Source: an uncultured Eubacteriales bacterium | GTDB lineage: Bacteria; Bacillota; Clostridia; Oscillospirales; Acutalibacteraceae | Assembly: GCA_964500795.1 (NCBI GenBank) | Contig: CAZCQI010000001.1 | Location: 1-49,981 of the forward strand | Length of the DNA: 49,981 bases | Direction: 5' to 3' | Part shown: piece by piece, positions 3,299-43,436 of the stretch | Layout of the letters: every line of letters begins with the position of its first letter | Numbering within the stretch: the first letter of the stretch is position 1 | The notes under the pieces: model-generated | The model's input: the letters and a program-made list of their open reading frames with translations, nothing else | Databases searched by the model: none | Told to the model about the DNA's origin: nothing | Program-made: the position numbers and the translations under genes

Positions 3299-3991
3299 TT
3301 ACTTTGTTTCAAACTTGTAGCCTACGCCCCAAACGGTTTTAAGCTCCCATTTATCGGAAACACCCTCGAGCTTTTCGCGCAGACGTTTTACGTGAACATC
3401 AACGGTTCTTGAGTCACCGTAGTATTCGAAGCCCCAAACTTCATCGAGAAGCTGGTCACGGGTGTAAACTCTGTTAGGATTGCTTGCAAGGTGGAAAATA
3501 AGCTCAAGCTCTTTTGGGGGAGTGTCCACTGCTTTGCCGTTTACTTTCATTTCATAGTTTGTAAGGTTAACGGTAAGCTTATCGTATGAAACCTCCTTAA
3601 CTGCATTATCCTCGTTGCCTTGAGAAACCGAACGGCGAAGCACCGCTTTAATGCGGGCAATAACTTCTTTTGTTTCAAAAGGCTTTGTAATGTAATCGTC
3701 AGCACCCAGCTCAAGACCTAAAACCTTATCAAAGGTTTCGCCCTTTGCGGTTAGCATAATAATTGGTTTCTGAGAGTTTTTTCTGATTTCGCGGCATATC
3801 TGCCAGCCGTCCATACCGGGAAGCATTATGTCAAGAAGAACAAGGTCGGGATCGGTGTTATTGAAAGCATCAATAGCGTTAAACCCGTTGGTAACTACTT
3901 CTGTTTCAAAGCCGTCCTTTTCAAGATAAAGCCTTAACAGCTCGCAAATATTGATATCGTCATCAACAATAAGTATTTTTGCATTTGCCAT
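3299..3991 (-). CDS. OmpR/PhoB-family response regulator
   Basis: Receiver domain (ILIVDDD, phospho-acceptor context LVLLDIMLPGMDG, LTAKG). Winged-helix C-terminus (RVYTRDQLLDEVWG ... VWGVGYKF). Confidence 0.92.
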   Translation of the reverse strand: MANAKILIVDDDINICELLRLYLEKDGFETEVVTNGFNAIDAFNNTDPDLVLLDIMLPGMDGWQICREIRKNSQKPIIMLTAKGETFDKVLGLELGADDYITKPFETKEVIARIKAVLRRSVSQGNEDNAVKEVSYDKLTVNLTNYEMKVNGKAVDTPPKELELIFHLASNPNRVYTRDQLLDEVWGFEYYGDSRTVDVHVKRLREKLEGVSDKWELKTVWGVGYKFETK

Positions 3992-4104
3992 AGGTGTTTC
4001 CTCCTTACGGATTTCTTTACATACTATATATTATCAAAAACAGTACGGGAATTTATGAACAATTTTTAAAATAAAATTAATATAAAGGTAAATATTACAA
4101 GTCT

Positions 4105-4136
4105 AAAAACGGCAGTAGGAAAAACTGCCGTTTTTT
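4105..4136 (-). terminator. Intrinsic terminator (bidirectional shape) after ORF 4139..5929
   Basis: Stem cggcagt / actgccg with a 7-nt loop, flanked by an A-run and a T-run, immediately past the stop codon. Confidence 0.7.
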
Positions 4137-4138
4137 AA

Positions 4139-5929
4139 TCAGGATTTTTCTTTGTTTTTTCTCTTGCGATTATTTTTATCTTTGACCTTGCCGTGCTTGC
4201 CTTTTTTTAATTTTACTGCAATTACAATGCCGATTGCAAGAGCAATCAGACAAATTACCGAAACAATTACAGCTGTTTTTTTGAGGCTTTCATTGCCTGT
4301 ATTTGAGTCTGCGGTTGAATCTGCAGTGGTAGGTTCGGTAAGGTAACTGTCCGCAAGAACAAGTTGTATATTGCCGTCCTCGTCAACGGTGTAAACATAG
4401 CCCTCGGGAAGAGTTTCGTACACTGTGCCGTTCCGGTCAACTATCTGACCCGCGGAGTTGAGGGAATAAAGCTCATTATTTGTACCCATCACCATATTGC
4501 CGTAGTCTGCGCCGGTGATAACAGAGCCTCCTGCCGGGATAATTGCATCGACACCCGTTGTGATAATTGAACCTAATGTTGAAATGATTCCTGTGAGGTC
4601 GCTGCCGGGTGCGGTTTTTGAACCCTGATATACATTCAGCTTGTAGGTTGAGGTTTTTGTTTTTCCGCTTGCAACATAACGGCATACAATGTTGAGGGTC
4701 TGCTTTTGGGTACCGTTGAGAGGTACATTTGCATATTCACCTGCAGTATATTCCTTGCCGTTGATATAAACGGTTACACCGCTGTTGCTTATGGGGGTGG
4801 GGTTGATGTAGATACTGCTTCTTGCGTATTCCAGATATGTGTTATACTCGTAAATATCTGAATAGAATTCCTGCTCTAAATCAAAGCGGTCGGTTTTTTT
4901 AAGCACAAGATCAAAGCATTGCTCGTATGAATATTTTGTTGAGGATAATGTGAGCTTTGCATCCTCGTATGCCATACGCTGTAAGATATAAAAGGCTACG
5001 GTGCCTTTATTTAAAGCTTTCTCAACGCTTGAGGGGTCAAGAGTGACACTGTACTGAGAGCCCAGCATAGCCGTAAGATATTTAAGACGGATTTCCTCGG
5101 TGGTAGCAGTTTCCGAATCAACCGCTATACCGTAGGTCCTGATTGTCATTATGGCAACTCTTCTGTAAACCTCATTTTCAGAGATAGTTGTCAGCTCTTT
5201 TGCGGAAACATAACCTTGAGAATAAAGAGAGAACAGTGATGTGTAGTAAATATAATCGTCAAGGCTCGGTATTGAGGATATGCCGAAATATTTTGAAACA
5301 AATTCGTATAACGTGGAATTTTGTCCCGAAAGAGCCGCTGTATACATAACAAGGGCTTCTTCAAGAGGTGTTCCCTCGGGAATTGTGAAATGCTGCCCCG
5401 TGTATACATAATACAAATCGTTTCTCATCAAAGCGTAAAGAGCACTTATCATAAAGGCTTTATCGGGATCGGCTTCATCCTCCGCCGTGACAATAATTCC
5501 GTGAGCTCTGAGCCAATCAGCCATTGTGGCATAGTCAGTGTCAGGCTCGGAGATAACAGTAAGCGCACCTAACTGCTGAAAAAAATAAAGATAAGCGGCT
5601 TTCTGGGAATCATCGTCAAGAGTATATAATTCAATGTTTTCGGCAACTGTTTTTTTAAATGTGGGCGCATCCGTGGTGTAGGGATAATCACACACAGGGT
5701 AAAGAAGAAGCTCGGTTACAAAACTCTCGGCTGCCAGCATATCTTCTTTAACAACAAGCTTGCGAAGCCAGGAGGGGTCGTTTTCATCGTAAAGATACTG
5801 AGTGTTAACACCAAGGTTATCGGTGTTTACCGTGCTTGCGAAGGTTTTTGCGAAAACAGACGGGCTGAATGAAGTTATCAACAGTGAAACTGTAATTATC
5901 AAGCACAAAAATTTAGCTGTTTTTTTCAA
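4139..5929 (-). CDS. Exported, C-terminally membrane-anchored protein of unknown function
   Basis: Signal peptide MKKTAKFLCLIITVSLLITSFSPSVFA. C-terminal TM (AVIVSVICLIALAIGIVIAV) followed by a Lys/Arg-rich tail. I recognised no catalytic motif. Confidence 0.65.
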   Translation of the reverse strand: MKKTAKFLCLIITVSLLITSFSPSVFAKTFASTVNTDNLGVNTQYLYDENDPSWLRKLVVKEDMLAAESFVTELLLYPVCDYPYTTDAPTFKKTVAENIELYTLDDDSQKAAYLYFFQQLGALTVISEPDTDYATMADWLRAHGIIVTAEDEADPDKAFMISALYALMRNDLYYVYTGQHFTIPEGTPLEEALVMYTAALSGQNSTLYEFVSKYFGISSIPSLDDYIYYTSLFSLYSQGYVSAKELTTISENEVYRRVAIMTIRTYGIAVDSETATTEEIRLKYLTAMLGSQYSVTLDPSSVEKALNKGTVAFYILQRMAYEDAKLTLSSTKYSYEQCFDLVLKKTDRFDLEQEFYSDIYEYNTYLEYARSSIYINPTPISNSGVTVYINGKEYTAGEYANVPLNGTQKQTLNIVCRYVASGKTKTSTYKLNVYQGSKTAPGSDLTGIISTLGSIITTGVDAIIPAGGSVITGADYGNMVMGTNNELYSLNSAGQIVDRNGTVYETLPEGYVYTVDEDGNIQLVLADSYLTEPTTADSTADSNTGNESLKKTAVIVSVICLIALAIGIVIAVKLKKGKHGKVKDKNNRKRKNKEKS

Positions 5930-5968
5930 AAACTCGTCTCCTTTCTTTGAAATAGGGTGGTGTAAAAA

Positions 5969-7018
5969 TCATTTTTTAACAGTGAAAGCGAAAATTGTGT
6001 TTGAAACATATTCTTCCCCTGCATCATAGGTGCAGGAGGGCCATTCGGGATGGTTAGGTGTGTCGGGATAAAACTGTGTTTCAAAGCAGAAGGCAGAACG
6101 GTTTGTTATAGGCACACCGTTTTTACCTTGGACGGAGCCGTCAAGGAAGTTACCCGTGTAAAGCTGAATGCCGGGAAGGTCGGTTTTAACCTCCATAGCA
6201 ATTCCGCTCTTATCGCCTGTTGCCGTTGCGGCGGTTTTTAACGTGCCGTCGAAATCGGTTATGCAGAAATTGTGGTCATAGCCGTTGCCGTTTTTGAGCT
6301 GTATATGGTCTGCCGCTATATCTCTGCCGATAGCTTTTTCGGTTGTGAAATCAAATGGTGTTCCGCTGACGGGGGCGAGTTCACCTGTGGGAATACTTAT
6401 TTCATCAATGGGTGTGTAACGGTCAGCATTTATTTTAACCGTATGTTTAAGAATATCGCCGCTGTCAAAACCGTTAAGGTTAAAATAGGCGTGGTTTGTA
6501 AGGTTGATAATTGTTTTCTTATCGGAAATCGCTCTGTATTCCAAAGCTAATTCATCGCTGTCGGTGAGGGTGTATGTAACGGCAACCTGAACATTTCCCG
6601 GGAAGCCCTCTGTGCCGTCAAGACTTTTGTAGGTGAATTTTACGGAATTGTCGGCAATTATTTCACTGCTCCATAAAGCAGAAGAATATTCGCCGCCTCC
6701 GTGAAGGCAGGTGATGCCTTTTTCGTTGCAGGTGACATTGTATTCTGCGCCGTCTATTGAGAATTTGCCGTCCTTAATGCGGTTTGCGTACTGACCTACC
6801 ACAACGCCCTGATAATCTCCGCGATAGATGTGACCGTCAAGGTTATCGTGACCTACCAAAATATCGATAAGCTCACCGTTTTTATCTTTGATAAAAAGCT
6901 TATCAAGGGTTGCACCTTTTTCAATAAGCTGAACCTTAGTACCGTTTTTGTTTTCAATATTTAAAGCGTAAACGTCTTTTCCGTTCATGATGCCGTAATG
7001 GGTTTTTGTTACAGACAT
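5969..7018 (-). CDS. galM: Aldose 1-epimerase (galactose mutarotase)
   Basis: Family-typical motifs GGxxG-like LHGGGEYS, LTNHAYFNL, GYDHNF and FCFETQ. About 350 aa. Confidence 0.88.
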   Translation of the reverse strand: MSVTKTHYGIMNGKDVYALNIENKNGTKVQLIEKGATLDKLFIKDKNGELIDILVGHDNLDGHIYRGDYQGVVVGQYANRIKDGKFSIDGAEYNVTCNEKGITCLHGGGEYSSALWSSEIIADNSVKFTYKSLDGTEGFPGNVQVAVTYTLTDSDELALEYRAISDKKTIINLTNHAYFNLNGFDSGDILKHTVKINADRYTPIDEISIPTGELAPVSGTPFDFTTEKAIGRDIAADHIQLKNGNGYDHNFCITDFDGTLKTAATATGDKSGIAMEVKTDLPGIQLYTGNFLDGSVQGKNGVPITNRSAFCFETQFYPDTPNHPEWPSCTYDAGEEYVSNTIFAFTVKK

Positions 7019-30450: not shown

Positions 30451-31926
30451 TTGGAAAAAAATGAATCTTCGTTTAGAATAAACTTCGAATGGCATAGCCT
30501 TCTTAAAGACCTTATTCGCAACATCTGGCTTGTTATCCTTGCAGGGGTGATTGCCTTTTTAGGTATTCGGGTTGTGGAAAACAGTGGTTATACCCCCACT
30601 TACACAAGCAGCGCAGTTCTTGTTGTTCGTTCAAAGGTCGGAACCACAGGGGTGTACAGTAACCTTGAATCCTCAGTTGAAATGGCAAAAATATTTACAA
30701 CTGTTTTTAAACAATCCACAATGAAAAAGCTTGCCGCAGAAAATATCGGTGAGAAATCCTTTAACGGAACAATTCAAGCAGATGTCACCGGAACAACAAA
30801 TCTTTTGAATATTTCTGTGAGCAGTAAGGATCCTGAATTATCCTTTCGCTTACTTTCATCGATTCTTGAGGTTTATCCCGATGTTTCCGATACCATATTC
30901 AGCGATGCTGTTATTGATATTATTTCATATCCTGATATGCCTACATCTCCGTCAAACTCTCCGTTGACGATTTACAGAAACTATATTATTCTGTTTTTTA
31001 TGGCTTTTGAAGCGGCAATGATTTTTCTTTTTTCTATACTGAGAGAAACTGTTAAAGATGAAAAAGGCTTTTTTGAGGATATTGATGCAGAGCTTATAGG
31101 GACCATAGCTCACGAACACCCCCATATTTCATTCAGAGAAAAACTCAAAAAGAAAAAAAGAGCTATGTTGATAAATGATGCTTATTCAACGCTCAAATAT
31201 ACCGAGGATTATCATAAGCTGGCAACGAAGTTTGAATATATGCGAAAAAGGAAGGAGCAAAAGGTTTTTACAGTAACAAGTGTTGCGGAAAATGAAGGTA
31301 AATCAACTGTTGCTTCAAATATAGCTTTAGCACTTTCCGAAAGAGGGTATAAAGTTGCCCTTATAGATCTGGATGTACGCAAGCCCTCTCTGTATAAAAT
31401 ATTTGATTTCCGCCATGAATTGAAAACAGAGTTTTCAGATGTTCTTTCTAACAAAGCCACTTTAAGCGAGTTTGGTTTTTTTTCGTATAAAAAAGGCGAA
31501 TTATTAATAGCTTTCAATAAAAAATCTTACCAAAATTCCCATTATTTATTCAGCAATAAAACATTTAAACAGTGTATTTCGGTTCTCAGCAAAAAAATGG
31601 ACTTTGTTATTATAGATACCCCGCCGTGTTCCGTTTCAGCAGACGCGGTAACAATTTCTTCTTTTGCAGATGCTTCTTTACTTGTTGTGAGAACAGATTG
31701 CGTCGCTGTTGAAGACATAAACGATGCAATTTTGTCCCTTTCTGAATCCGATGGCAATTTTGCGGGCTGTATTCTGAATGATGTACACAAACAGTTCACC
31801 TTATTCGGTCAGATGGGTTCGGAAGAAACAGGATATTACAGGTCGTATTATAACGGTTATTCAAAATATGCCGGAAGCAACAACACAGATTATAAAAGAG
31901 AAATAGTTGACAAAAGAACCGACTAA
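30451..31926 (+). CDS. Fused Wzz-type chain-length-determinant / BY-tyrosine autokinase (paralog 1)
   Basis: Two TM segments bracket a ~150-aa outer domain. The kinase has Walker A-like AENEGKST, Walker A' LIDLDVRKP, Walker B VIIDTPP and a C-terminal Tyr cluster GYYRSYYNGYSKY. TTG start 7 nt after AGGTGGG. Confidence 0.78.
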   Translation: MEKNESSFRINFEWHSLLKDLIRNIWLVILAGVIAFLGIRVVENSGYTPTYTSSAVLVVRSKVGTTGVYSNLESSVEMAKIFTTVFKQSTMKKLAAENIGEKSFNGTIQADVTGTTNLLNISVSSKDPELSFRLLSSILEVYPDVSDTIFSDAVIDIISYPDMPTSPSNSPLTIYRNYIILFFMAFEAAMIFLFSILRETVKDEKGFFEDIDAELIGTIAHEHPHISFREKLKKKKRAMLINDAYSTLKYTEDYHKLATKFEYMRKRKEQKVFTVTSVAENEGKSTVASNIALALSERGYKVALIDLDVRKPSLYKIFDFRHELKTEFSDVLSNKATLSEFGFFSYKKGELLIAFNKKSYQNSHYLFSNKTFKQCISVLSKKMDFVIIDTPPCSVSADAVTISSFADASLLVVRTDCVAVEDINDAILSLSESDGNFAGCILNDVHKQFTLFGQMGSEETGYYRSYYNGYSKYAGSNNTDYKREIVDKRTD

Positions 31927-31965
31927 GACTCTAATAAAAACTAAAGTCAGAAATAAGGTTATTAT

Positions 31966-33435
31966 ATGTACAATGAAAAACCAAATCGGGATATAACCAA
32001 CGCTACCGATGCCGTTAACCTTAAAGTCCTCATAAGCGATATATGGCGCGGATTTGTTAAATTCATCTGGATAGCTGTTGTTCTTGCCGTGCTTTTCGGC
32101 GGAATCCAGTTTTACAGAAGTTATATCAATTTCACCCCTGTTTACACCGTAACCGCAACTTTTACGGTTCAGACCGAAAACAAGGTTCTTTCGGGTGATA
32201 ACGGCGTTTCGGCATACGCCTTTTACTATAACAGAGACACCGCAAATCAGCTTGCATCAGTTTTTCCGTATATAATCAATAACCCAATTCTTACAACAAA
32301 GGTTTGTGAAGAATTGAATGTTAAAGCGATGCCGGCAACCGTTACCGCAACCTGCATTGCCGATACAAATATGGTTACGCTTACCGCAAAGGGATCGGAC
32401 TCTCAAAAAACTTATGATACATTGCTCTCTGTTATTGATAATTATTCTTCGGTTGCCGATTATATAATCGGCCGAACAAAGCTCGTAATAATCAGCGAAC
32501 CCGAAGTTCCGAAACAGCCTTCAAACACAATGGATTGGATTCAATCGGTAGTTATTGCCGCTTTTATCGGCGGTGCCATCGGTGTAGGTTGGATTATTAT
32601 TTATGCTCTTCTGAGAAAAACAATCCGAACAAAAGCGGATATCCGAAAAGTTCTTAATCAAAAGTGTATAGGAGTTATCCCGCAGGTTGTTTTCAAAAAA
32701 TACCGAAGAAAAATTAACACCGATGTTATTCTTACTAATCCCCATATCGGTAACGATTTTTTGGAATCGTTGAGGTTGCTCATGAATTCGGTTCAGAAGC
32801 ATCTTTCTGCCGATGAAAAAATTGTTATGATAACAAGCACCGCTCCCGAAGAAGGGAAATCGGTAGTAACTCTTAACCTTGCATCTGTCTTTGCTCAAAG
32901 CCGCGATGTCCTTGTGGTGGACTGCGATTTGAGAGATTCGGGAATATATCCCTTGGCAACAAACAATGCCGGAACAATCACAACAAAAACAGATAATGAG
33001 ACTTATTCCATAAACCATTTAGAAGCTCTCGGAATTGATTTTCTCAGCTTTAAGGATGGCGAAAGTGCGCTTCAAAGTATAATCCGCACTTCTGAGCTTC
33101 AGGAAATTCTTTCGAAATTAAAGGAGCGCTATGACATAATCTTTGTTGATACGCCTCCTTGCGGTATAATTTCAGATGCCGCTATTGTTGCAAGGGCTTC
33201 GGATGCCATTCTCTATATCGTAAGACAAGATGCTGTTATGCAATCTGTTATAAGAACAAGAATGAGCACTATGCTTCAAACGGAAACAAAGTTCCTCGGT
33301 TGTATTCTTAACGGAGCTACAGGCGGTTTGGGTGGCTACGGCAACTATTATCGGTACGGCGGCTACAACAAATATTACCGTCACGGGTATATGTACAAAG
33401 GAAGCTACGGATATCGCAGTAAAAATAAGAAATAA
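31966..33435 (+). CDS. Fused Wzz-type chain-length-determinant / BY-tyrosine autokinase (paralog 2)
   Basis: Same architecture as paralog 1. Walker A-like APEEGKSV, A' VVDCDLRD, B IFVDTPP and a very Tyr-rich tail GGYGNYYRYGGYNKYYRHGYMYKGSYGYRS. Confidence 0.82.
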   Translation: MYNEKPNRDITNATDAVNLKVLISDIWRGFVKFIWIAVVLAVLFGGIQFYRSYINFTPVYTVTATFTVQTENKVLSGDNGVSAYAFYYNRDTANQLASVFPYIINNPILTTKVCEELNVKAMPATVTATCIADTNMVTLTAKGSDSQKTYDTLLSVIDNYSSVADYIIGRTKLVIISEPEVPKQPSNTMDWIQSVVIAAFIGGAIGVGWIIIYALLRKTIRTKADIRKVLNQKCIGVIPQVVFKKYRRKINTDVILTNPHIGNDFLESLRLLMNSVQKHLSADEKIVMITSTAPEEGKSVVTLNLASVFAQSRDVLVVDCDLRDSGIYPLATNNAGTITTKTDNETYSINHLEALGIDFLSFKDGESALQSIIRTSELQEILSKLKERYDIIFVDTPPCGIISDAAIVARASDAILYIVRQDAVMQSVIRTRMSTMLQTETKFLGCILNGATGGLGGYGNYYRYGGYNKYYRHGYMYKGSYGYRSKNKK

Positions 33436-35243: not shown

Positions 35244-35272
35244 TTGAAATAAAAAAACAACAATGTTATAAT
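35244..35272 (+). promoter_or_regulatory. Near-consensus sigma-A promoter for the PqqD/rSAM/peptide/kinase operon
   Basis: TTGAAA-N17-TATAAT with a TGt extended -10, 45 nt upstream of the ATG at 35317. GAGG RBS. Confidence 0.65.
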
Positions 35273-35583: not shown

Positions 35584-36629
35584 TTGATTGCGGACAAATC
35601 GGCAACGATTACATAGAACAGCTCAGAGCATGGGCAAAACGTAATTTCGTTCCGCTTACTGCTACCTTCGAATTAACTCCTTTTTGCAATTTCGATTGCG
35701 TTATGTGCTATGTTCATTTAACAAAAGAAGCAGCCGAAAAGCAAGGCAAGCTGCTTACTGCCGACGAATGGATCGAAATAGCCCAACAAGCAAAAAATAT
35801 GGGCACTCTTAACCTTTCCTTAACCGGCGGTGAACCGTTTTTGCACCCTGAGTTCTGGAAAATCTACGAAGAACTGAACAAAATGGGGTTTTTGATTTCT
35901 GTTTTATCCAACGGCTCAATGATTGACGAGTCTGTAATGGAAAAATTTCGTAAATACGGTATGCCGTATATGGTTAAGCTCACTCTTTACGGTGCAAGCG
36001 ATGAAACATATCAACGCACCTGCAATTCACCAAATGGCTTCACAAGGTTTACAAAAGCCGTTGATCTTCTTAAAGATGCGGGAGTACCATTAAGTATAAC
36101 CTCAACCATAGTAAAAGAAAACGTAGATGATTTGCAAGATATCTACCGTTTTGCAAGAGAAAGGAATTTGCCTTTACAGCATACAATAACCGTGGTTAAA
36201 TCCTCCAGAGGGTCAATAAACACAATTGAAAAATCCCGGTTTAATTTTGATGATTATTGTGAGAAGCTGACTCTTGATGACCTTGAAAAAAGTAAATTTC
36301 CTTCTGCTGATGAGCCGTTTTCTTTATGCGGCAGCTTCGGAAATTCCTTCTGGATGACTTGGCACGGGCATTTACAGATGTGTTCATTTATGAACCTTCC
36401 TGACGTCCCGTATTCAGGAAATTTAAATTCAGATTTTAAAAAGCTGAATGAAATGCTGTTAAAACTGAGAAATCCCGTTGAATGCGAGAAGTGTCAGTAT
36501 AAAACATTCTGCCAAAGATGTCCCGGAATTTTGTGCGGTGAGAGCGGACACCCTGAAAAAACAACCGACAGAATCTGTAGCTTAGCAAGACGATTTTTTG
36601 AATTATATAAAACCAAGAAAGAGAATTGA
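35580..36629 (+). CDS. Radical SAM enzyme with C-terminal SPASM-type auxiliary-cluster domain
   Basis: CNFDCVMCY (CX3CX2C) and a GGEP motif (LTGGEPFLHPEF). C-terminal C-x12-G-x4-C, then CEKCQYKTFCQRC (CX2CX5CX2C) plus two more Cys. Only 349 aa, with no N-terminal RRE. Confidence 0.85.
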   Translation: MIDCGQIGNDYIEQLRAWAKRNFVPLTATFELTPFCNFDCVMCYVHLTKEAAEKQGKLLTADEWIEIAQQAKNMGTLNLSLTGGEPFLHPEFWKIYEELNKMGFLISVLSNGSMIDESVMEKFRKYGMPYMVKLTLYGASDETYQRTCNSPNGFTRFTKAVDLLKDAGVPLSITSTIVKENVDDLQDIYRFARERNLPLQHTITVVKSSRGSINTIEKSRFNFDDYCEKLTLDDLEKSKFPSADEPFSLCGSFGNSFWMTWHGHLQMCSFMNLPDVPYSGNLNSDFKKLNEMLLKLRNPVECEKCQYKTFCQRCPGILCGESGHPEKTTDRICSLARRFFELYKTKKEN

Positions 36630-36630
36630 T

Positions 36631-36897
36631 ATGAAAAAGAAATATATCGTTCCCGACTGTAAGCTTTTTGCAATCAATATAAGTGAAAATATTGCAGCTT
36701 CCGGAGGTTCTTCTGAAATCTCGGGCTCTGCGGTTATTCAGTTTTTTCAATATATTGATGGTTGCAGAGGTATTTATACAAAAAATGATACGGCAACTGT
36801 AAACCCGAATAATTCTACTTTTATGGATTACTATAATGAATTGCTCACATACGGTGCCGAAGTTTATTTTAATTGTTTCCGCTACCAATACGGATGA
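36631..36897 (+). CDS. Candidate RiPP precursor peptide (88 aa), Tyr/Phe-rich C-terminal region
   Basis: ATG lies 1 nt after the rSAM stop, with an AAGAAAGAGAA RBS. The stop overlaps the next start (ATGA). Sequence: MKKKYIVPDCKLFAINISENIAASGGSSEISGSAVIQFFQYIDGCRGIYTKNDTATVNPNNSTFMDYYNELLTYGAEVYFNCFRYQYG. I recognised no family. Confidence 0.5.
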   Translation: MKKKYIVPDCKLFAINISENIAASGGSSEISGSAVIQFFQYIDGCRGIYTKNDTATVNPNNSTFMDYYNELLTYGAEVYFNCFRYQYG

Positions 36898-37698: not shown

Positions 37699-37737
37699 AA
37701 AAACACTCTTTTGTCGACCCGGCAAAAGAGTGTTTTT
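37699..37737 (+). terminator. Intrinsic terminator ending the RiPP-like operon
   Basis: 13-bp arms aaaacactctttt / aaaagagtgtttt followed by a T-run. A small atacgc-gaa-gcgtat hairpin sits at 37677-37691. Confidence 0.75.
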
Positions 37738-37775
37738 GTGTGGCATCGAACCCAAATATGCCTTAAATGAATAAA

Positions 37776-37811: not shown

Positions 37812-37885
37812 TGGCAGCGGGATAGGGATTCGAACCCCAACAAACAGAGTCAGAGTCTGTCGTGCTACCGTTACACTATCCCGCT
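37812..37885 (-). tRNA. tRNA-Gln (anticodon CTG)
   Basis: The reverse complement folds as a cloverleaf. Acceptor AGCGGGA/TCCCGCT, D stem GTGT/GCAC, anticodon stem ACAGA/TCTGT with loop CTCTGAC, T arm TGGGG-TTCGAAT-CCCTA, and an encoded CCA. Confidence 0.85.
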
Positions 37886-38099: not shown

Positions 38100-39185
38100 A
38101 TGAAATATATAGTTGATAAAAAAAATAAGGAGCCTGCATACATACAGCTTTACACTCAATTTCGTAATGATATTGTGAGCGGGGTTTATAAATACGGTGT
38201 TAAATTACCCTCTAAAAGGCTTGTTGCGACGGAAACAAATGTCAGTGTTGTGACGGTGGAGCACGCTTATGAGCTTCTTTGCGATGAAGGGTATGTACGA
38301 TCTAAGGAGCGAAGCGGTTATTTTGTTGAATACAGTGCCGAGGAATGCTTTCCCGTTGGGGAGCCGTCGGCAAATGAAAAAGCGGTCAAATACCATAACA
38401 TTGATACAGATTTTCCGTTTTCGGTGTATTGTAAAACGGTGAGACGGGTGCTCAGCGAATACGGAGAGGATATTCTTATTAAATCGCCCAATAACGGTTG
38501 CAGAGAGCTGCGCCGTGCCATAGCCGCATATCTCGTAAGAAGTCGCGGTATGAGAGTGGATGCATCACAGGTTATTATCGGTTCGGGTGCCGAGTATCTT
38601 TACAGTCTTATAGTGCAGATGCTGGGGAGAGATAAAATTTTTGCTCTTGAAAATCCGTCTTATGAAAAAATACGCAAGGTGTACGGTGCCAACGGTGTCA
38701 ATTGCGAAATGTTAAAAATGGGTGCCGACGGTATCAGAAGTGACGAGCTTGAAAAAACACTCGCCGGTGTTCTCCACGTCACCCCGTTTAACAGCTTTCC
38801 CAGCGGAGTTACCGCCACCGCTTCCAAAAGAAATGAATATGTGCGTTGGGTGAGAGAACGTGACGGTATTTTGATAGAAGATGATTTCGATTCCGAATTT
38901 ACCGTTTCCATGAAAGCGGCTGATACGCTTTTTTCTTTGGAGCCCGAAAGAACCATATATATGAATACATTTTCAAAAACCGTTGCCCCGTCTGTGCGTA
39001 TCGGTTATATGGTTTTGCCTGAAAAGCTTATAGCCACCTTTGAGAAAACCGTGGGCTTTTATTCCTGCACGGTACCTATACTCGAGCAGTATGTTCTTGC
39101 GCAATTTATAGATAACGGTGATTTCGAGCGGCATATAAACAGGGTGAGGAGGAAAAGAAGAAATAAATTGACGCGTAACGGATAA
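38100..39185 (+). CDS. GntR/MocR-family regulator (wHTH plus fold-type-I aminotransferase-like domain), apparently C-terminally truncated
   Basis: GntR wHTH (LPSKRLVATETNVSVVTVEHAYELLCDEGYV) and PLP-Lys motif NTFSKTVAPSVRIGYM. The ORF stops about 75 aa later, whereas my recollection is that MocR proteins run about 100 aa longer. Confidence 0.7.
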   Translation: MKYIVDKKNKEPAYIQLYTQFRNDIVSGVYKYGVKLPSKRLVATETNVSVVTVEHAYELLCDEGYVRSKERSGYFVEYSAEECFPVGEPSANEKAVKYHNIDTDFPFSVYCKTVRRVLSEYGEDILIKSPNNGCRELRRAIAAYLVRSRGMRVDASQVIIGSGAEYLYSLIVQMLGRDKIFALENPSYEKIRKVYGANGVNCEMLKMGADGIRSDELEKTLAGVLHVTPFNSFPSGVTATASKRNEYVRWVRERDGILIEDDFDSEFTVSMKAADTLFSLEPERTIYMNTFSKTVAPSVRIGYMVLPEKLIATFEKTVGFYSCTVPILEQYVLAQFIDNGDFERHINRVRRKRRNKLTRNG

Positions 39186-39203
39186 AATTTATATAAAAAA
39201 CAG

Positions 39204-39232
39204 TTGACATTTTTTATTTGTTATGGTAATAT
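39204..39232 (+). promoter_or_regulatory. Consensus sigma-A promoter for the tRNA-Ser pair
   Basis: TTGACA-N17-TAATAT with a TGg extended -10, ending 16 nt before the first tRNA. Confidence 0.7.
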
Positions 39233-39248
39233 ATCAAGGCTGATAAAT

Positions 39249-39337
39249 GCAGAGATACCGAAGTGGTTATAACGGAACGGTCTTGAAAACCGTCGTACGG
39301 CAACGTACCGTGGGTTCGAATCCCACTCTCTGCGCCA
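39249..39337 (+). tRNA. tRNA-Ser (anticodon TGA), class II with long variable arm
   Basis: Acceptor GCAGAGA/TCTCTGC, anticodon stem ACGGT/ACCGT with loop CTTGAAA, variable arm GTACG-GCAA-CGTAC, T arm GTGGG-TTCGAAT-CCCAC, and an encoded CCA. Confidence 0.85.
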
Positions 39338-39380
39338 CCTCTTTTGAGGACAATTTAATAACTGATTTCCAGTTACCAAT

Positions 39381-39471
39381 GCAGAAGTACTCAAGTTGGT
39401 GACGAGGCGCCCCTGCTAAGGGCGTAGGTCGGGAAACCGGCGCGAGAGTTCGAGTCTCTCCTTCTGCGCCA
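39381..39471 (+). tRNA. tRNA-Ser (anticodon GCT), class II with long variable arm
   Basis: Acceptor GCAGAAG/CTTCTGC, anticodon stem CGCCC/GGGCG with loop CTGCTAA, T arm GAGAG-TTCGAGT-CTCTC, and an encoded CCA. Confidence 0.85.
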
Positions 39472-42380: not shown

Positions 42381-43436
42381 ATGAAAAATTCAGATTTAAA
42401 AGTCGTTGCAATTATTTTGGCGATTGCTCTTTTTGCAACAGTTGTGACCAGCAATGCAGTTTCGGTTGCATCAATCGTTTACTTAGCTAAAGGTAGCACT
42501 GCAACTGTCTCCGCTTCAACAGGCGACGCCGACGCCACAGGTGATACAGGTTCGTCAAGCGGTTCTGTTGCAACGGGTGATACCGGCTCTGTAGTTGACA
42601 CGGGCTCCGTAGGTGATACAAGCTCCGCAGGTGATACCGGCTCTGCAGGCAGTTCAGCGTCAACAGGCGATACAGGTTCTGCAGGCAGTTCAACTTCAAC
42701 CGGAAGCACAGGTTCAACAGGAAGCACAGGTTCAACGGGAAGCACAGGTTCAACAGGAAGCACAGGTTCAACAGGAAGCACAGGCTCAACAGGCTCAGCA
42801 GGAACAACCTCAAACGCTTGGGATAAGGCAACAACTTATAATTTCTATAAAAAAGCTGCTCACGATCAGGCAACAAAGGGTACAGCCGGTTTTGATAAAA
42901 TTGAGTGGCAGGTTCTTGAGAATCTTGAGGTAGGTTCAGTAGGCTCCATTGTTCAGCCTATCATTGATGACCTTATGACAACTGAAGCAGAAGCAGAGGT
43001 TCAGGTTAATGAAAAAGGCTCCGACGAAGCAAAAAGACGTTTCCCTGATTGCACACTTACAGATCTCACTAAGGTTGCAAGTGCAACTAAGAAGGATCTT
43101 GCAAACGGCAACTATGAAATAACTATCATTATGCAGGATGAAGATACTCCTATGAAGTCAAATAACTTCCTTGGTCAGGTTACAAGCTCTGTTCTTTTCT
43201 GGGAAGATATTGAGGAAACAATTGCTGGTCTTCCGGTAAGCATCACCGTTAACAGCAAGTCTATTAATTATAAGGGTTACAAAATCGTTGCCGAAATGAC
43301 TAAGGACGGTAAATTCGTTTCTCTCGGCCATTATGCAACAGTTGATATTAAGGCTAACGCAAAGATTACTATTTTCACTGTTGATGTGGGCGGTATGCTT
43401 TACAACAACTGCAAATATTCAAACTTTAAGTATTGA
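42381..43436 (+). CDS. Membrane-anchored or secreted protein with a Gly/Ser/Thr/Asp repeat linker and an uncharacterised C-terminal globular domain
   Basis: N-terminal hydrophobic segment (VVAIILAIALFATVVTS). About 100 aa of GDTGS and GST repeats, then a ~210-aa non-repetitive domain. I recognised no family. Confidence 0.7.
   Translation: MKNSDLKVVAIILAIALFATVVTSNAVSVASIVYLAKGSTATVSASTGDADATGDTGSSSGSVATGDTGSVVDTGSVGDTSSAGDTGSAGSSASTGDTGSAGSSTSTGSTGSTGSTGSTGSTGSTGSTGSTGSTGSTGSAGTTSNAWDKATTYNFYKKAAHDQATKGTAGFDKIEWQVLENLEVGSVGSIVQPIIDDLMTTEAEAEVQVNEKGSDEAKRRFPDCTLTDLTKVASATKKDLANGNYEITIIMQDEDTPMKSNNFLGQVTSSVLFWEDIEETIAGLPVSITVNSKSINYKGYKIVAEMTKDGKFVSLGHYATVDIKANAKITIFTVDVGGMLYNNCKYSNFKY
42702..42791 (+). 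repeat. Five tandem copies of an 18-bp unit (ggaagcacaggttcaaca) encoding (GST)n, within a wider degenerate GDTGS-coding repeat zone (about 42530-42800)
   Basis: Direct reading shows units at 42702, 42720, 42738, 42756 and 42774, with 1-nt variants in copies 2 and 5. Confidence 0.85.

Follow-up and report, generated by a model that had tools for sequence, protein, structure and literature searches.

The subject of this work is a small open reading frame (ORF) of 88 codons in a stretch of 49,981 nucleotides, here called the window, from contig CAZCQI010000001.1 of an uncultured Eubacteriales bacterium of the Acutalibacteraceae (assembly GCA_964500795.1). The ORF is placed between a gene for a radical S-adenosylmethionine (rSAM) enzyme and a gene for a kinase-like P-loop protein, and a sequence-only reading of the window had put it forward as a putative peptide precursor. 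We consider it probable that the ORF encodes the ribosomal precursor peptide of an rSAM-dependent cassette of the kind that gives ribosomally made peptides with post-translational modifications (RiPPs). As judged from the sequences and their comparison across genomes, the gene is real, its product has a leader/core architecture, its place in the cassette is fixed, and the families of its neighbours can be named.

The ORF translates to MKKKYIVPDCKLFAINISENIAASGGSSEISGSAVIQFFQYIDGCRGIYTKNDTATVNPNNSTFMDYYNELLTYGAEVYFNCFRYQYG (88 residues). The stop codon of the rSAM gene (TGA, 36627-36629) is separated from the precursor ATG by one base, the precursor TGA overlaps the ATG of the kinase-like gene at 36894-36896 (ATGA), and a purine-rich stretch, AAGAAAGAGAA, is found 6-16 nt upstream of the precursor ATG. 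This bears out the coordinates, the coupling on both sides and the purine-rich upstream stretch described in the sequence-only reading. Its residue counts were also reproduced by a recount from the translation: 6 Phe, 9 Tyr and 3 Cys (C10, C45 and C82) in the whole peptide, of which 3 Phe and 7 Tyr are among its last 45 residues. An alternative start of the kinase-like gene at TTG 36873 was rejected, as the homologues and the gene calls begin at ATG 36894.

Among 5.8 billion proteins searched, 53 clusters of 88-95 amino acids are 48-74% identical to the precursor over the full length; not one of them has a Pfam domain, and no source gives any of them a name. Pfam and NCBIfam were also found to hold no family for the ORF itself, for 38 divergent members or for the short paralogous peptides described below. 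Codons 1-24 have, among close precursor pairs, a ratio of nonsynonymous to synonymous polymorphism (pN/pS) of 0.07, against 0.23 in the remaining codons, and from this it follows that the precursor is translated and under purifying selection, with an N-terminus roughly three times more constrained. The 88-codon gene is real and conserved.

Conservation was followed in two alignments, one of the close family of the precursor (A1) and one of the 38 divergent members (A2), and residue counts were made on 112 unique members. In A2 the mean fraction of the top residue is 0.75 for positions 1-24 against 0.34 for positions 25-88. A profile search of 1.84 billion representatives returned 49 matches of 80-104 amino acids, several of which cover only profile positions 1-27 to 1-34. 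Across the compared loci, identity to the window in the core drops from 68% to about 20%, while that of the PqqD protein, the rSAM enzyme and the kinase-like protein stays at about 45-69%. The leader is 58-83% identical to that of the window in all but three of these loci (two have 50-54%, and the paralogues in locus L055 have 38% and 50%). On these sequence comparisons, a conserved leader is followed by a variable core, which is a leader/core architecture, and the proposal of a precursor with an N-terminal leader is supported. Uniform conservation along the whole length, as in a folded protein, had been named beforehand as an outcome that would speak against a precursor; it is limited to the close subfamily. 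There, A1 has a mean column identity of 66% over its whole length, with 18 invariant positions from K2 to C82, C45 among them, and a variable patch only at about 50-63.

Two matches were set aside. One, at locus L052 in a Bacteroidaceae genome, is a chance match in which only the first ~34 residues match and none of the cassette genes is nearby. The other, P0071, is a repeat-summing artefact: a repeat protein of 2912 amino acids, apparently eukaryotic as judged on sequence alone, in which 21 weak stretches on profile positions 29-61 add up to a summed E=1.6e-12. A scan of metagenomes with the precursor alignment matched 452 stretches, none of which was confirmed.

The position of the ORF among its neighbours was examined in a scan of one genome per GTDB species, in which 46 loci were found through the peptide. 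Apart from the chance match at L052, all of them (45/46) belong to Acutalibacteraceae or to unclassified Clostridia, as metagenome-assembled genomes from animal guts. The complete cassette reads, in order, ABC exporter, PqqD, rSAM enzyme, precursor, kinase-like protein, soluble signal-peptidase-like protease and NTP_transf_5 nucleotidyltransferase, and the order PqqD-rSAM-precursor-kinase-like holds across the peptide-found loci (about 46 species). The same cassette also surrounds members whose cores are unrecognisable against that of the window (P0089 in L053 and P0103 in L057). A search from the rSAM side, aimed at avoiding ascertainment bias, gave 1764 clusters at E<=1e-20; four previously unseen loci were looked up, and all four have an ORF of 89-96 amino acids with the same leader between the rSAM gene and the kinase-like gene. 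Homologous cassettes lacking a small ORF, the other outcome named in advance as telling against the proposal, were looked for and the small ORF was always present, the four rSAM-seeded loci included. From this comparison, the precursor slot is an obligatory part of the cassette.

Further support comes from multiplicity. Loci L055 (8001-8604) and L056 carry two tandem precursor paralogues of 82 and 95 amino acids, which share the leader and the C-terminal Cys and otherwise have different cores; in L055 an acyltransferase gene follows. Eight other loci (L008, at 3388-6513, and L011, L014, L021, L025, L027, L029 and L046) have a second module, which lies between the genes for the ABC exporter and PqqD and comprises genes for an S24-like peptidase (170 amino acids), a second rSAM enzyme (~30% identical), an ORF of 54-59 amino acids and a fusion of an HprK-like protein with PqqD. 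The 54-59 residue peptides are unannotated and follow the pattern MKKxYxTPVAEKIEFRYxDQVAAS then ..CTQNW...CSHTVAVPDSGF, with a leader ending in A-A-S/G. In an hhalign comparison, columns 1-26 of this family align with the leader of the 88-residue family (probability 85%, E=6e-6) and no similarity is found beyond. Because the profile-profile alignment stops after column 26, the boundary between leader and core is placed at about residue 24-26. Going by the gene content, the tandem paralogues and the second module amount to the multiplicity that is typical of RiPPs.

The leader has the superfamily consensus MKKxY[IV]xPESxLFxINLxENIAxS. Ten of its positions are at least 90% conserved among 38-112 divergent members (M1, K2, K3, Y5, P8, S10, L12, E19, I21 and A22), and the near-invariant Y5 and P8 together form a Y-x-x-P motif. 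Its end, A22-x-S24, is compatible with a signal-peptidase-type site with small residues at -3 and -1, and members with one extra residue still have the A-x-S motif, in a shifted register. A Sec or lipoprotein signal peptide was rejected, since the residues of the N-terminus are charged and polar (E, N, D, S) and a hydrophobic core is absent. In a model made with AlphaFold2 (AF2) from the 53-sequence alignment (mean predicted local distance difference test, pLDDT, 66; predicted template modelling score, pTM, 0.49), residues 1-30 have pLDDT <50, and a disordered leader fits a precursor.

The sequence-only reading had let the leader end near a Gly-Gly. The leader does span about 24-26 residues and ends in A-x-S right before the Gly-Gly; the pair at 25-26, for its part, is conserved only in the close subfamily (in the 112 members, positions 25/26 have S or G in 57 and 37, and G in 74). 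Neither a C39 peptidase domain on the exporter nor a conserved Gly-Gly at the leader end was found, and since the cassette exporter has no C39 domain, the leader is not of the double-glycine type. The Cys that had been noted in the leader-like part is present as C10, and it is a strain-specific replacement (S10C) of a conserved Ser. Codons 9-10 of the window (36655-36660) read P-D-C where the family has P-E-S, with E in 93/112 and S in 106/112 members, so E9D is likewise unusual.

In the core, one residue stands out. C82 is the sole near-universal core residue of the superfamily (97%); a Cys is found 1-9 residues from the C-terminus in 110/112 unique members. The next best-conserved core positions are 49, which is aromatic in 92%, and 36, which is aliphatic in 82%. 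Length and the Gly/Ser linker vary among superfamily members (80-104 amino acids). A modification directed at Cys, for which the sequence-only reading had allowed in the form of thioether links, is better supported by this pattern than crosslinks on aromatic residues, and modification of Cys by the rSAM enzyme is likely.

The features of the cassette and their coordinates are collected in Table 1.

Table 1. Features of the precursor gene and its surroundings in the window.
Feature	Position	Strand	Basis or remark
88-aa precursor ORF	ATG 36631-36633 to TGA 36895-36897	+	88 codons
Leader region, residues 1-24 = MKKKYIVPDCKLFAINISENIAAS	36631..36702	+	conservation, AF2 disorder, hhalign, pN/pS
Core region, residues 25-88 + stop codon	36703..36897	+	Gly/Ser linker, then aromatic-rich segment
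C45	36763-36765	+	conserved only in nearer subfamily
C82	36874-36876	+	conserved in 97% of superfamily
MsbA-like ABC exporter, 572 aa	33453..35171	+	Pfam ABC_membrane and ABC_tran
Promoter-like site TTGAAA-17-TATAAT, TG before -10	35244..35272	+	consensus scan, 11/12 matches, pattern match only
Discrete PqqD-family RiPP recognition element (RRE), 88 aa	35317..35583	+	Pfam PqqD E=4.8e-12, 46.5 bits vs gathering score 23.4
Radical SAM/SPASM enzyme, 349 aa	35580..36629	+	Pfam Radical_SAM E=3.4e-29, 102.6 bits
HPr-kinase-like P-loop protein, 255 aa	36894..37661	+	NCBIfam, Pfam and profile matches; Pfam ScmC family in precomputed hits
Intrinsic terminator, 18-bp stem and U-run	37699..37745	+	-30.4 kcal/mol, z = -4.8 vs shuffles
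tRNA-Gln gene	37812-37885	minus	

The rSAM protein has the cluster motif CNFDCVMC (CX3CX2C), followed by C259-X12-G-X4-C277 and C311-X2-C-X5-C-X2-C-X4-C, a seven-Cys C-terminus of the SPASM type. Its NCBIfam matches (ScmE, AhbD, StsB, PqqE, MoaA, WgkB, AlbA, DynA and others) all lie at 50-79 bits, far under the cut-offs, so similarity does not tell which chemistry it performs; among solved structures the sactipeptide maturase SkfB, which forms thioethers, comes nearest (9.6e-14). Judged by its motifs and its neighbours, it is the presumed core-modifying enzyme. The PqqD protein has its best NCBIfam matches among lasso PqqD chaperones, below the cut-offs, and its nearest solved relative is the lasso leader-binding RRE TbiB1 (5v1u/5v1v, E=5.7e-4, aligned over its full length). 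By this analogy it is presumed to be the leader-binding chaperone.

Matches of the kinase-like protein to NCBIfam HprK_rel_B (2.3e-6) and hpr-ser (8.3e-5) are both below the cut-off; Pfam Hpr_kinase_C is matched at 1e-4 and PF27840, ScmC, is recorded on its homologues. A profile of 26 homologues matches the HPr kinases 1ko7, 2qmh and 1jb1 at 2e-4 over the catalytic core, and the P-loop, G-x-S-G-x-G-K-T, is invariant. It is in sequence terms a candidate peptide kinase, and the fusion of an HprK-like protein to PqqD in the paralogous module speaks for the leader-bound peptide as the substrate of the kinase-like enzyme. Phosphorylation by the adjacent P-loop protein, as had been suggested earlier, is plausible on these grounds.

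The ABC exporter is the first cassette gene in nearly all homologous loci and stands next to PqqD, also in L055, which is outside any locus for exopolysaccharide (EPS). Its residues 25-570 align to positions 151-688 of the 708 of the NCBIfam profile bacteriocin_ABC; it has no N-terminal C39 peptidase domain, and peptidase-containing models align only from about position 150. It is the likely exporter of the peptide, going by family and position. The promoter-like site, of sigma-70 type with an extended -10, falls in the gap of 145 nt that separates the ABC gene from PqqD, and suggests that the exporter and the PqqD-rSAM-precursor-kinase genes could have separate transcripts. Two more proteins belong to the complete cassettes. 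The protein of 143-150 amino acids matches Peptidase_S24 and signal peptidase I of the archaeal/SipW type; its boxes G-x-S-M-x-P, LHR and GD-x-Q are kept in at least 90% of 50 homologues, and from its sequence it apparently has no membrane segment. The nucleotidyltransferase matches NTP_transf_5 at 1.6e-38.

From RiPP biology and the lasso peptide literature, we infer the following order of events for leader binding by PqqD, Cys chemistry, phosphorylation, cleavage and export. The leader, residues 1-24, would be bound through its Y-x-x-P motif, which resembles the lasso motif YxxPxL, by the discrete PqqD RRE encoded two genes upstream. PqqD would then present the core of about 64 residues to the rSAM/SPASM enzyme. 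The likeliest target there would be C82, and the product a thioether (of the sacti/ranthi type) or another Cys-based crosslink to an upstream residue; candidate partners are the conserved aromatic residue at 49 and the T/S that follows it, and C45 may add a second link in the close subfamily. This assignment of the rSAM target to C82 is a tentative one. The HPr-kinase-like protein would afterwards probably phosphorylate a hydroxyl of the leader-bound peptide, T/S50 being one candidate. In complete cassettes, the NTP_transf_5 enzyme would probably decorate the product further, as in pseudomycoidin, and the soluble S26-type (SipW/Sec11-like) peptidase would probably cut the leader at A22-x-S24|G. 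Finally, the MsbA-like ABC protein would export the product.

As a whole, the gene content suggests that the cassette works most like an RRE-dependent rSAM RiPP pathway. The generic features of such pathways were found: an adjacent small precursor with a leader/core pattern, a PqqD RRE, and an rSAM enzyme with CX3CX2C and SPASM cysteines. Three groups of known systems come closest.

The first is the phosphorylated and phosphoglycosylated lasso clusters of Firmicutes and others. Such clusters, e.g. those of paeninodin, pseudomycoidin and Bsf (genes A, B1, B2, C, D, K and N), contain an HPr-kinase homologue, an NTP_transf_5 protein and an ABC exporter (PMC8498205). Their HPr-kinase homologues phosphorylate lasso precursors, the Bsf kinase having been assayed in co-expression with the B1 RRE, and an NTP_transf_5-type enzyme adds hexose to the phosphate (PMC8498205, PMC10368454). 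The lasso leader has the motif YxxPxL and a penultimate Thr (or Ile/Val) (PMC10368454). The cassette shares with these clusters a discrete PqqD-type RRE nearest to lasso B1 proteins, a leader in which a Y-x-x-P close to the N-terminus is invariant, and the K, N and D-type set. It differs in that an rSAM/SPASM enzyme and a soluble S26-type peptidase stand in place of the cyclase C and B2, and in that its core has about 60 residues instead of about 20 and no conserved C-terminal Ser. A lasso cyclase (asparagine-synthetase-like C) or a transglutaminase-like B2 was found neither in the window cassette nor in the gene table of any homologous locus. With no cyclase, no B2 and a motif that is not YxxPxL, the product is not a lasso peptide.

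The second group is the sactipeptides and ranthipeptides (SkfA/SkfB, subtilosin/AlbA, StsB), with which the cassette shares an rSAM enzyme with the SPASM Cys set, an RRE and a Cys-containing precursor. Unlike in those systems, the RRE is a separate protein, there is a single universally conserved Cys near the C-terminus of a long core, and kinase-like, nucleotidyltransferase and S26-type peptidase partners are added. Scores of the rSAM enzyme against the curated maturase models are 75.6 bits vs 625 for StsB, 61.4 vs 850 for AlbA and 52.1 vs 300 for the SkfB type.

The third group, the SynChlorMet (Scm) and GeoRSP cassettes, is known from comparative genomics (TIGRFAMs/NCBIfam) and likewise combines a PqqD-family protein, an rSAM/SPASM enzyme and an HprK-related/ScmC protein. 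In NCBIfam, the rSAM enzyme matches ScmE best and the kinase-like protein the GeoRSP-linked HprK_rel_B, and Pfam ScmC is found on homologues of the kinase-like protein. The differences are one rSAM enzyme and not two, the addition of the S26-like peptidase, NTP_transf_5 and an ABC exporter, and the occurrence in Clostridia EPS loci. Against ScmE, ScmF or GeoRSP_rSAM, geo_PqqD_fam and HprK_rel_B, the scores remain under the cut-offs (78.9 vs 400, 53.9 vs 400, 23.9 vs 100 and 27 vs 200, for ScmE/ScmF, GeoRSP_rSAM, geo_PqqD_fam and HprK_rel_B). As all scores are far below cut-off, the cassette is not a member of Scm, GeoRSP or a curated sactipeptide maturase family, and at family level its relation to Scm appears only through Pfam ScmC. 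We know of no precursor assigned so far to the Scm and GeoRSP cassettes.

The cassette in the window is a short form. It ends after the kinase-like gene (stop 37661), has neither protease nor NTP_transf_5, and is followed by the terminator and the tRNA-Gln gene; no relic of genes for the protease, NTP_transf_5 or the priming glycosyltransferase (Bac_transf) was found anywhere in the window. In nearly every other locus, these three genes come after the kinase-like gene. The identical peptide is also carried by contigs from six further sequencing runs, which are 99.6-100% identical to the window; three of these contigs end at 37851, inside tRNA-Gln, and one at 37841, just before the tRNA, so the junction exists and was not created by a chimeric assembly of the window. 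Beyond the tRNA-Gln gene, the window has in the region 38100-39471 a MocR/PdxR-like regulator (361 amino acids), which matches profile positions 1-361 of 448 and may be short at its C-terminus, followed by two tRNA-Ser genes (39249-39337 and 39381-39471), and at 42381-43436 an ORF of 351 amino acids in which a hydrophobic segment stands at the N-terminus and Gly/Ser/Thr/Asp repeats make up a long region (GDTGS..., followed by (GST)n).

The absence of the three genes, with a terminator and tRNA-Gln in their stead, and the leader changes E9D and S10C at positions where E and S are the rule are what would be expected if the window gene were a decaying remnant of a once-complete cassette, expressed or not, that gives no mature product. 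We regard this as unlikely, but it is the alternative that survives best. All five cassette ORFs of the window are intact, of full length and tightly coupled, and the same arrangement recurs in the contigs of the other runs. In addition, a short cassette that also ends after the kinase-like gene is found in an independent lineage (L065, 6273-8160), where an alpha-L-fucosidase gene comes next; the short form is therefore recurrent, which suggests a viable variant rather than decay. It either works with genes located elsewhere or is on its way to loss, and E9D/S10C is compatible with either.

A different chemistry for the same precursor had been raised in the sequence-only reading, namely three-residue cyclophane (triceptide-type) C-C crosslinks on aromatic omega-X-X triplets, with the Cys left outside the radical chemistry. 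The core is indeed rich in aromatic residues, and many are strongly kept in the close subfamily, where Y49, F64 and Y79 are invariant and Y67, Y68, F80, F83, Y85 and position 87 are at least 90% conserved (at 87 the consensus is Phe, and the window has Tyr). Moreover, SPASM enzymes that make C-C links (PqqE, WgkB and DynA) score about like thioether enzymes. In the superfamily as a whole, however, only position 49 stays aromatic and the triplets are not conserved, so that the idea keeps weak support; conserved, usually repeated aromatic-X-X motifs as in the cores of triceptide precursors were not found. With Cys as the single near-universal core residue and the thioether-forming SkfB as the nearest solved rSAM structure, we give cyclophane formation a small chance, with Y49 as the residue where it is still conceivable.

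In the AF2 model, residues 31-85 reach pLDDT 70-87 and form a hairpin (38-49) and two helices within 64-83; a Foldseek search of the model against the PDB gave no match (best E = 9.7). By another reading, the ORF encodes no substrate but a small folded protein with an accessory or scaffold role, such as a partner of the rSAM enzyme or of the kinase-like protein. The moderately confident core fold of this model is what speaks most for it. This reading would also agree with the full-length conservation of the close family and with a length of 88 residues, which is long for a precursor, but it is very improbable, as what is kept at superfamily level is confined to the first 24 residues and one Cys, the core drifts to about 20% identity where the enzymes are near 60%, core length and linker vary, the tandem paralogues of L055 have different cores, a 54-59 residue peptide with a related leader fills the same slot in the paralogous module, and no structural match is found in the PDB.

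Several observations weigh against a functional precursor with the maturation outlined above, or against parts of it. The conservation of the whole protein in the close subfamily, taken alone, matches what had been named in advance as the mark of a folded protein, and a small structured protein could look much like the moderately confident model of residues 31-85. The scores of the rSAM enzyme fail to separate thioether, C-C, ether and other chemistries. The leader reads YxxPESxL and not the lasso YxxPxL, with Leu four positions after Pro and not two, and it ends in A-x-S; the C-terminal residue is not a conserved Ser, unlike in phosphorylated lasso peptides. Lastly, the cassette of the window is truncated, so the pathway there is either incomplete or completed by genes elsewhere, and together with E9D and S10C this means that the window copy might be decaying.

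The genomic surroundings of the precursor family are nearly constant. At the peptide-found loci, two Wzz/BY-kinase genes lie before the ABC gene, and the priming glycosyltransferase and further EPS genes come after NTP_transf_5; by gene content, the family is usually within capsule/EPS gene clusters. In the window, two consecutive genes at 30451-33435 encode fusions of a Wzz domain with a P-loop tyrosine autokinase and have Tyr-rich C-terminal tails (e.g. GGYGNYYRYGGYNKYYRHGYMYKGSYGY); the pair is directly upstream of the ABC gene and precedes the cassette in most genomes. In L055/L056 the cassette stands outside any EPS locus and keeps its own ABC exporter, and from this the cassette appears to be self-contained. 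It is conceivable, if quite improbable, that the cassette product is a crosslinked, phosphorylated and glycosylated peptide that works in capsule/EPS assembly as a primer, an anchor or a regulatory ligand, and is not a free-standing bacteriocin. Such a role would explain why, in almost every carrier genome, the two Wzz/BY-kinase genes lie on one side of the cassette and the priming glycosyltransferase on the other and, if true, would link RiPP chemistry to polysaccharide biosynthesis.

For an rSAM system the set of enzymes is unusual: an rSAM/SPASM enzyme, a lasso-type RRE, an HPr-kinase-like protein, a nucleotidyltransferase and a cytoplasmic signal-peptidase-like protease. A search of the literature on this gene combination, SynChlorMet, GeoRSP, ScmC and the HprK-related kinase found nothing relevant; subscription journals were poorly covered by it, and an earlier description is possible. 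Pfam and NCBIfam have no model for either the 88-residue or the 54-59 residue peptide family, no source gives them a name, and standard annotation and RiPP miners would probably miss both. The leader motif MKKxY[IV]xPESxLFxINLxENIA offers a handle for searches and could help to find the precursors of related Scm/GeoRSP cassettes. The precursor provides a concrete, testable substrate for an uncharacterised rSAM peptide pathway found widely among uncultured Acutalibacteraceae of the gut, and its constant placement in capsule/EPS loci raises the question whether the modified peptide is part of, or co-regulated with, the production of surface polysaccharide.

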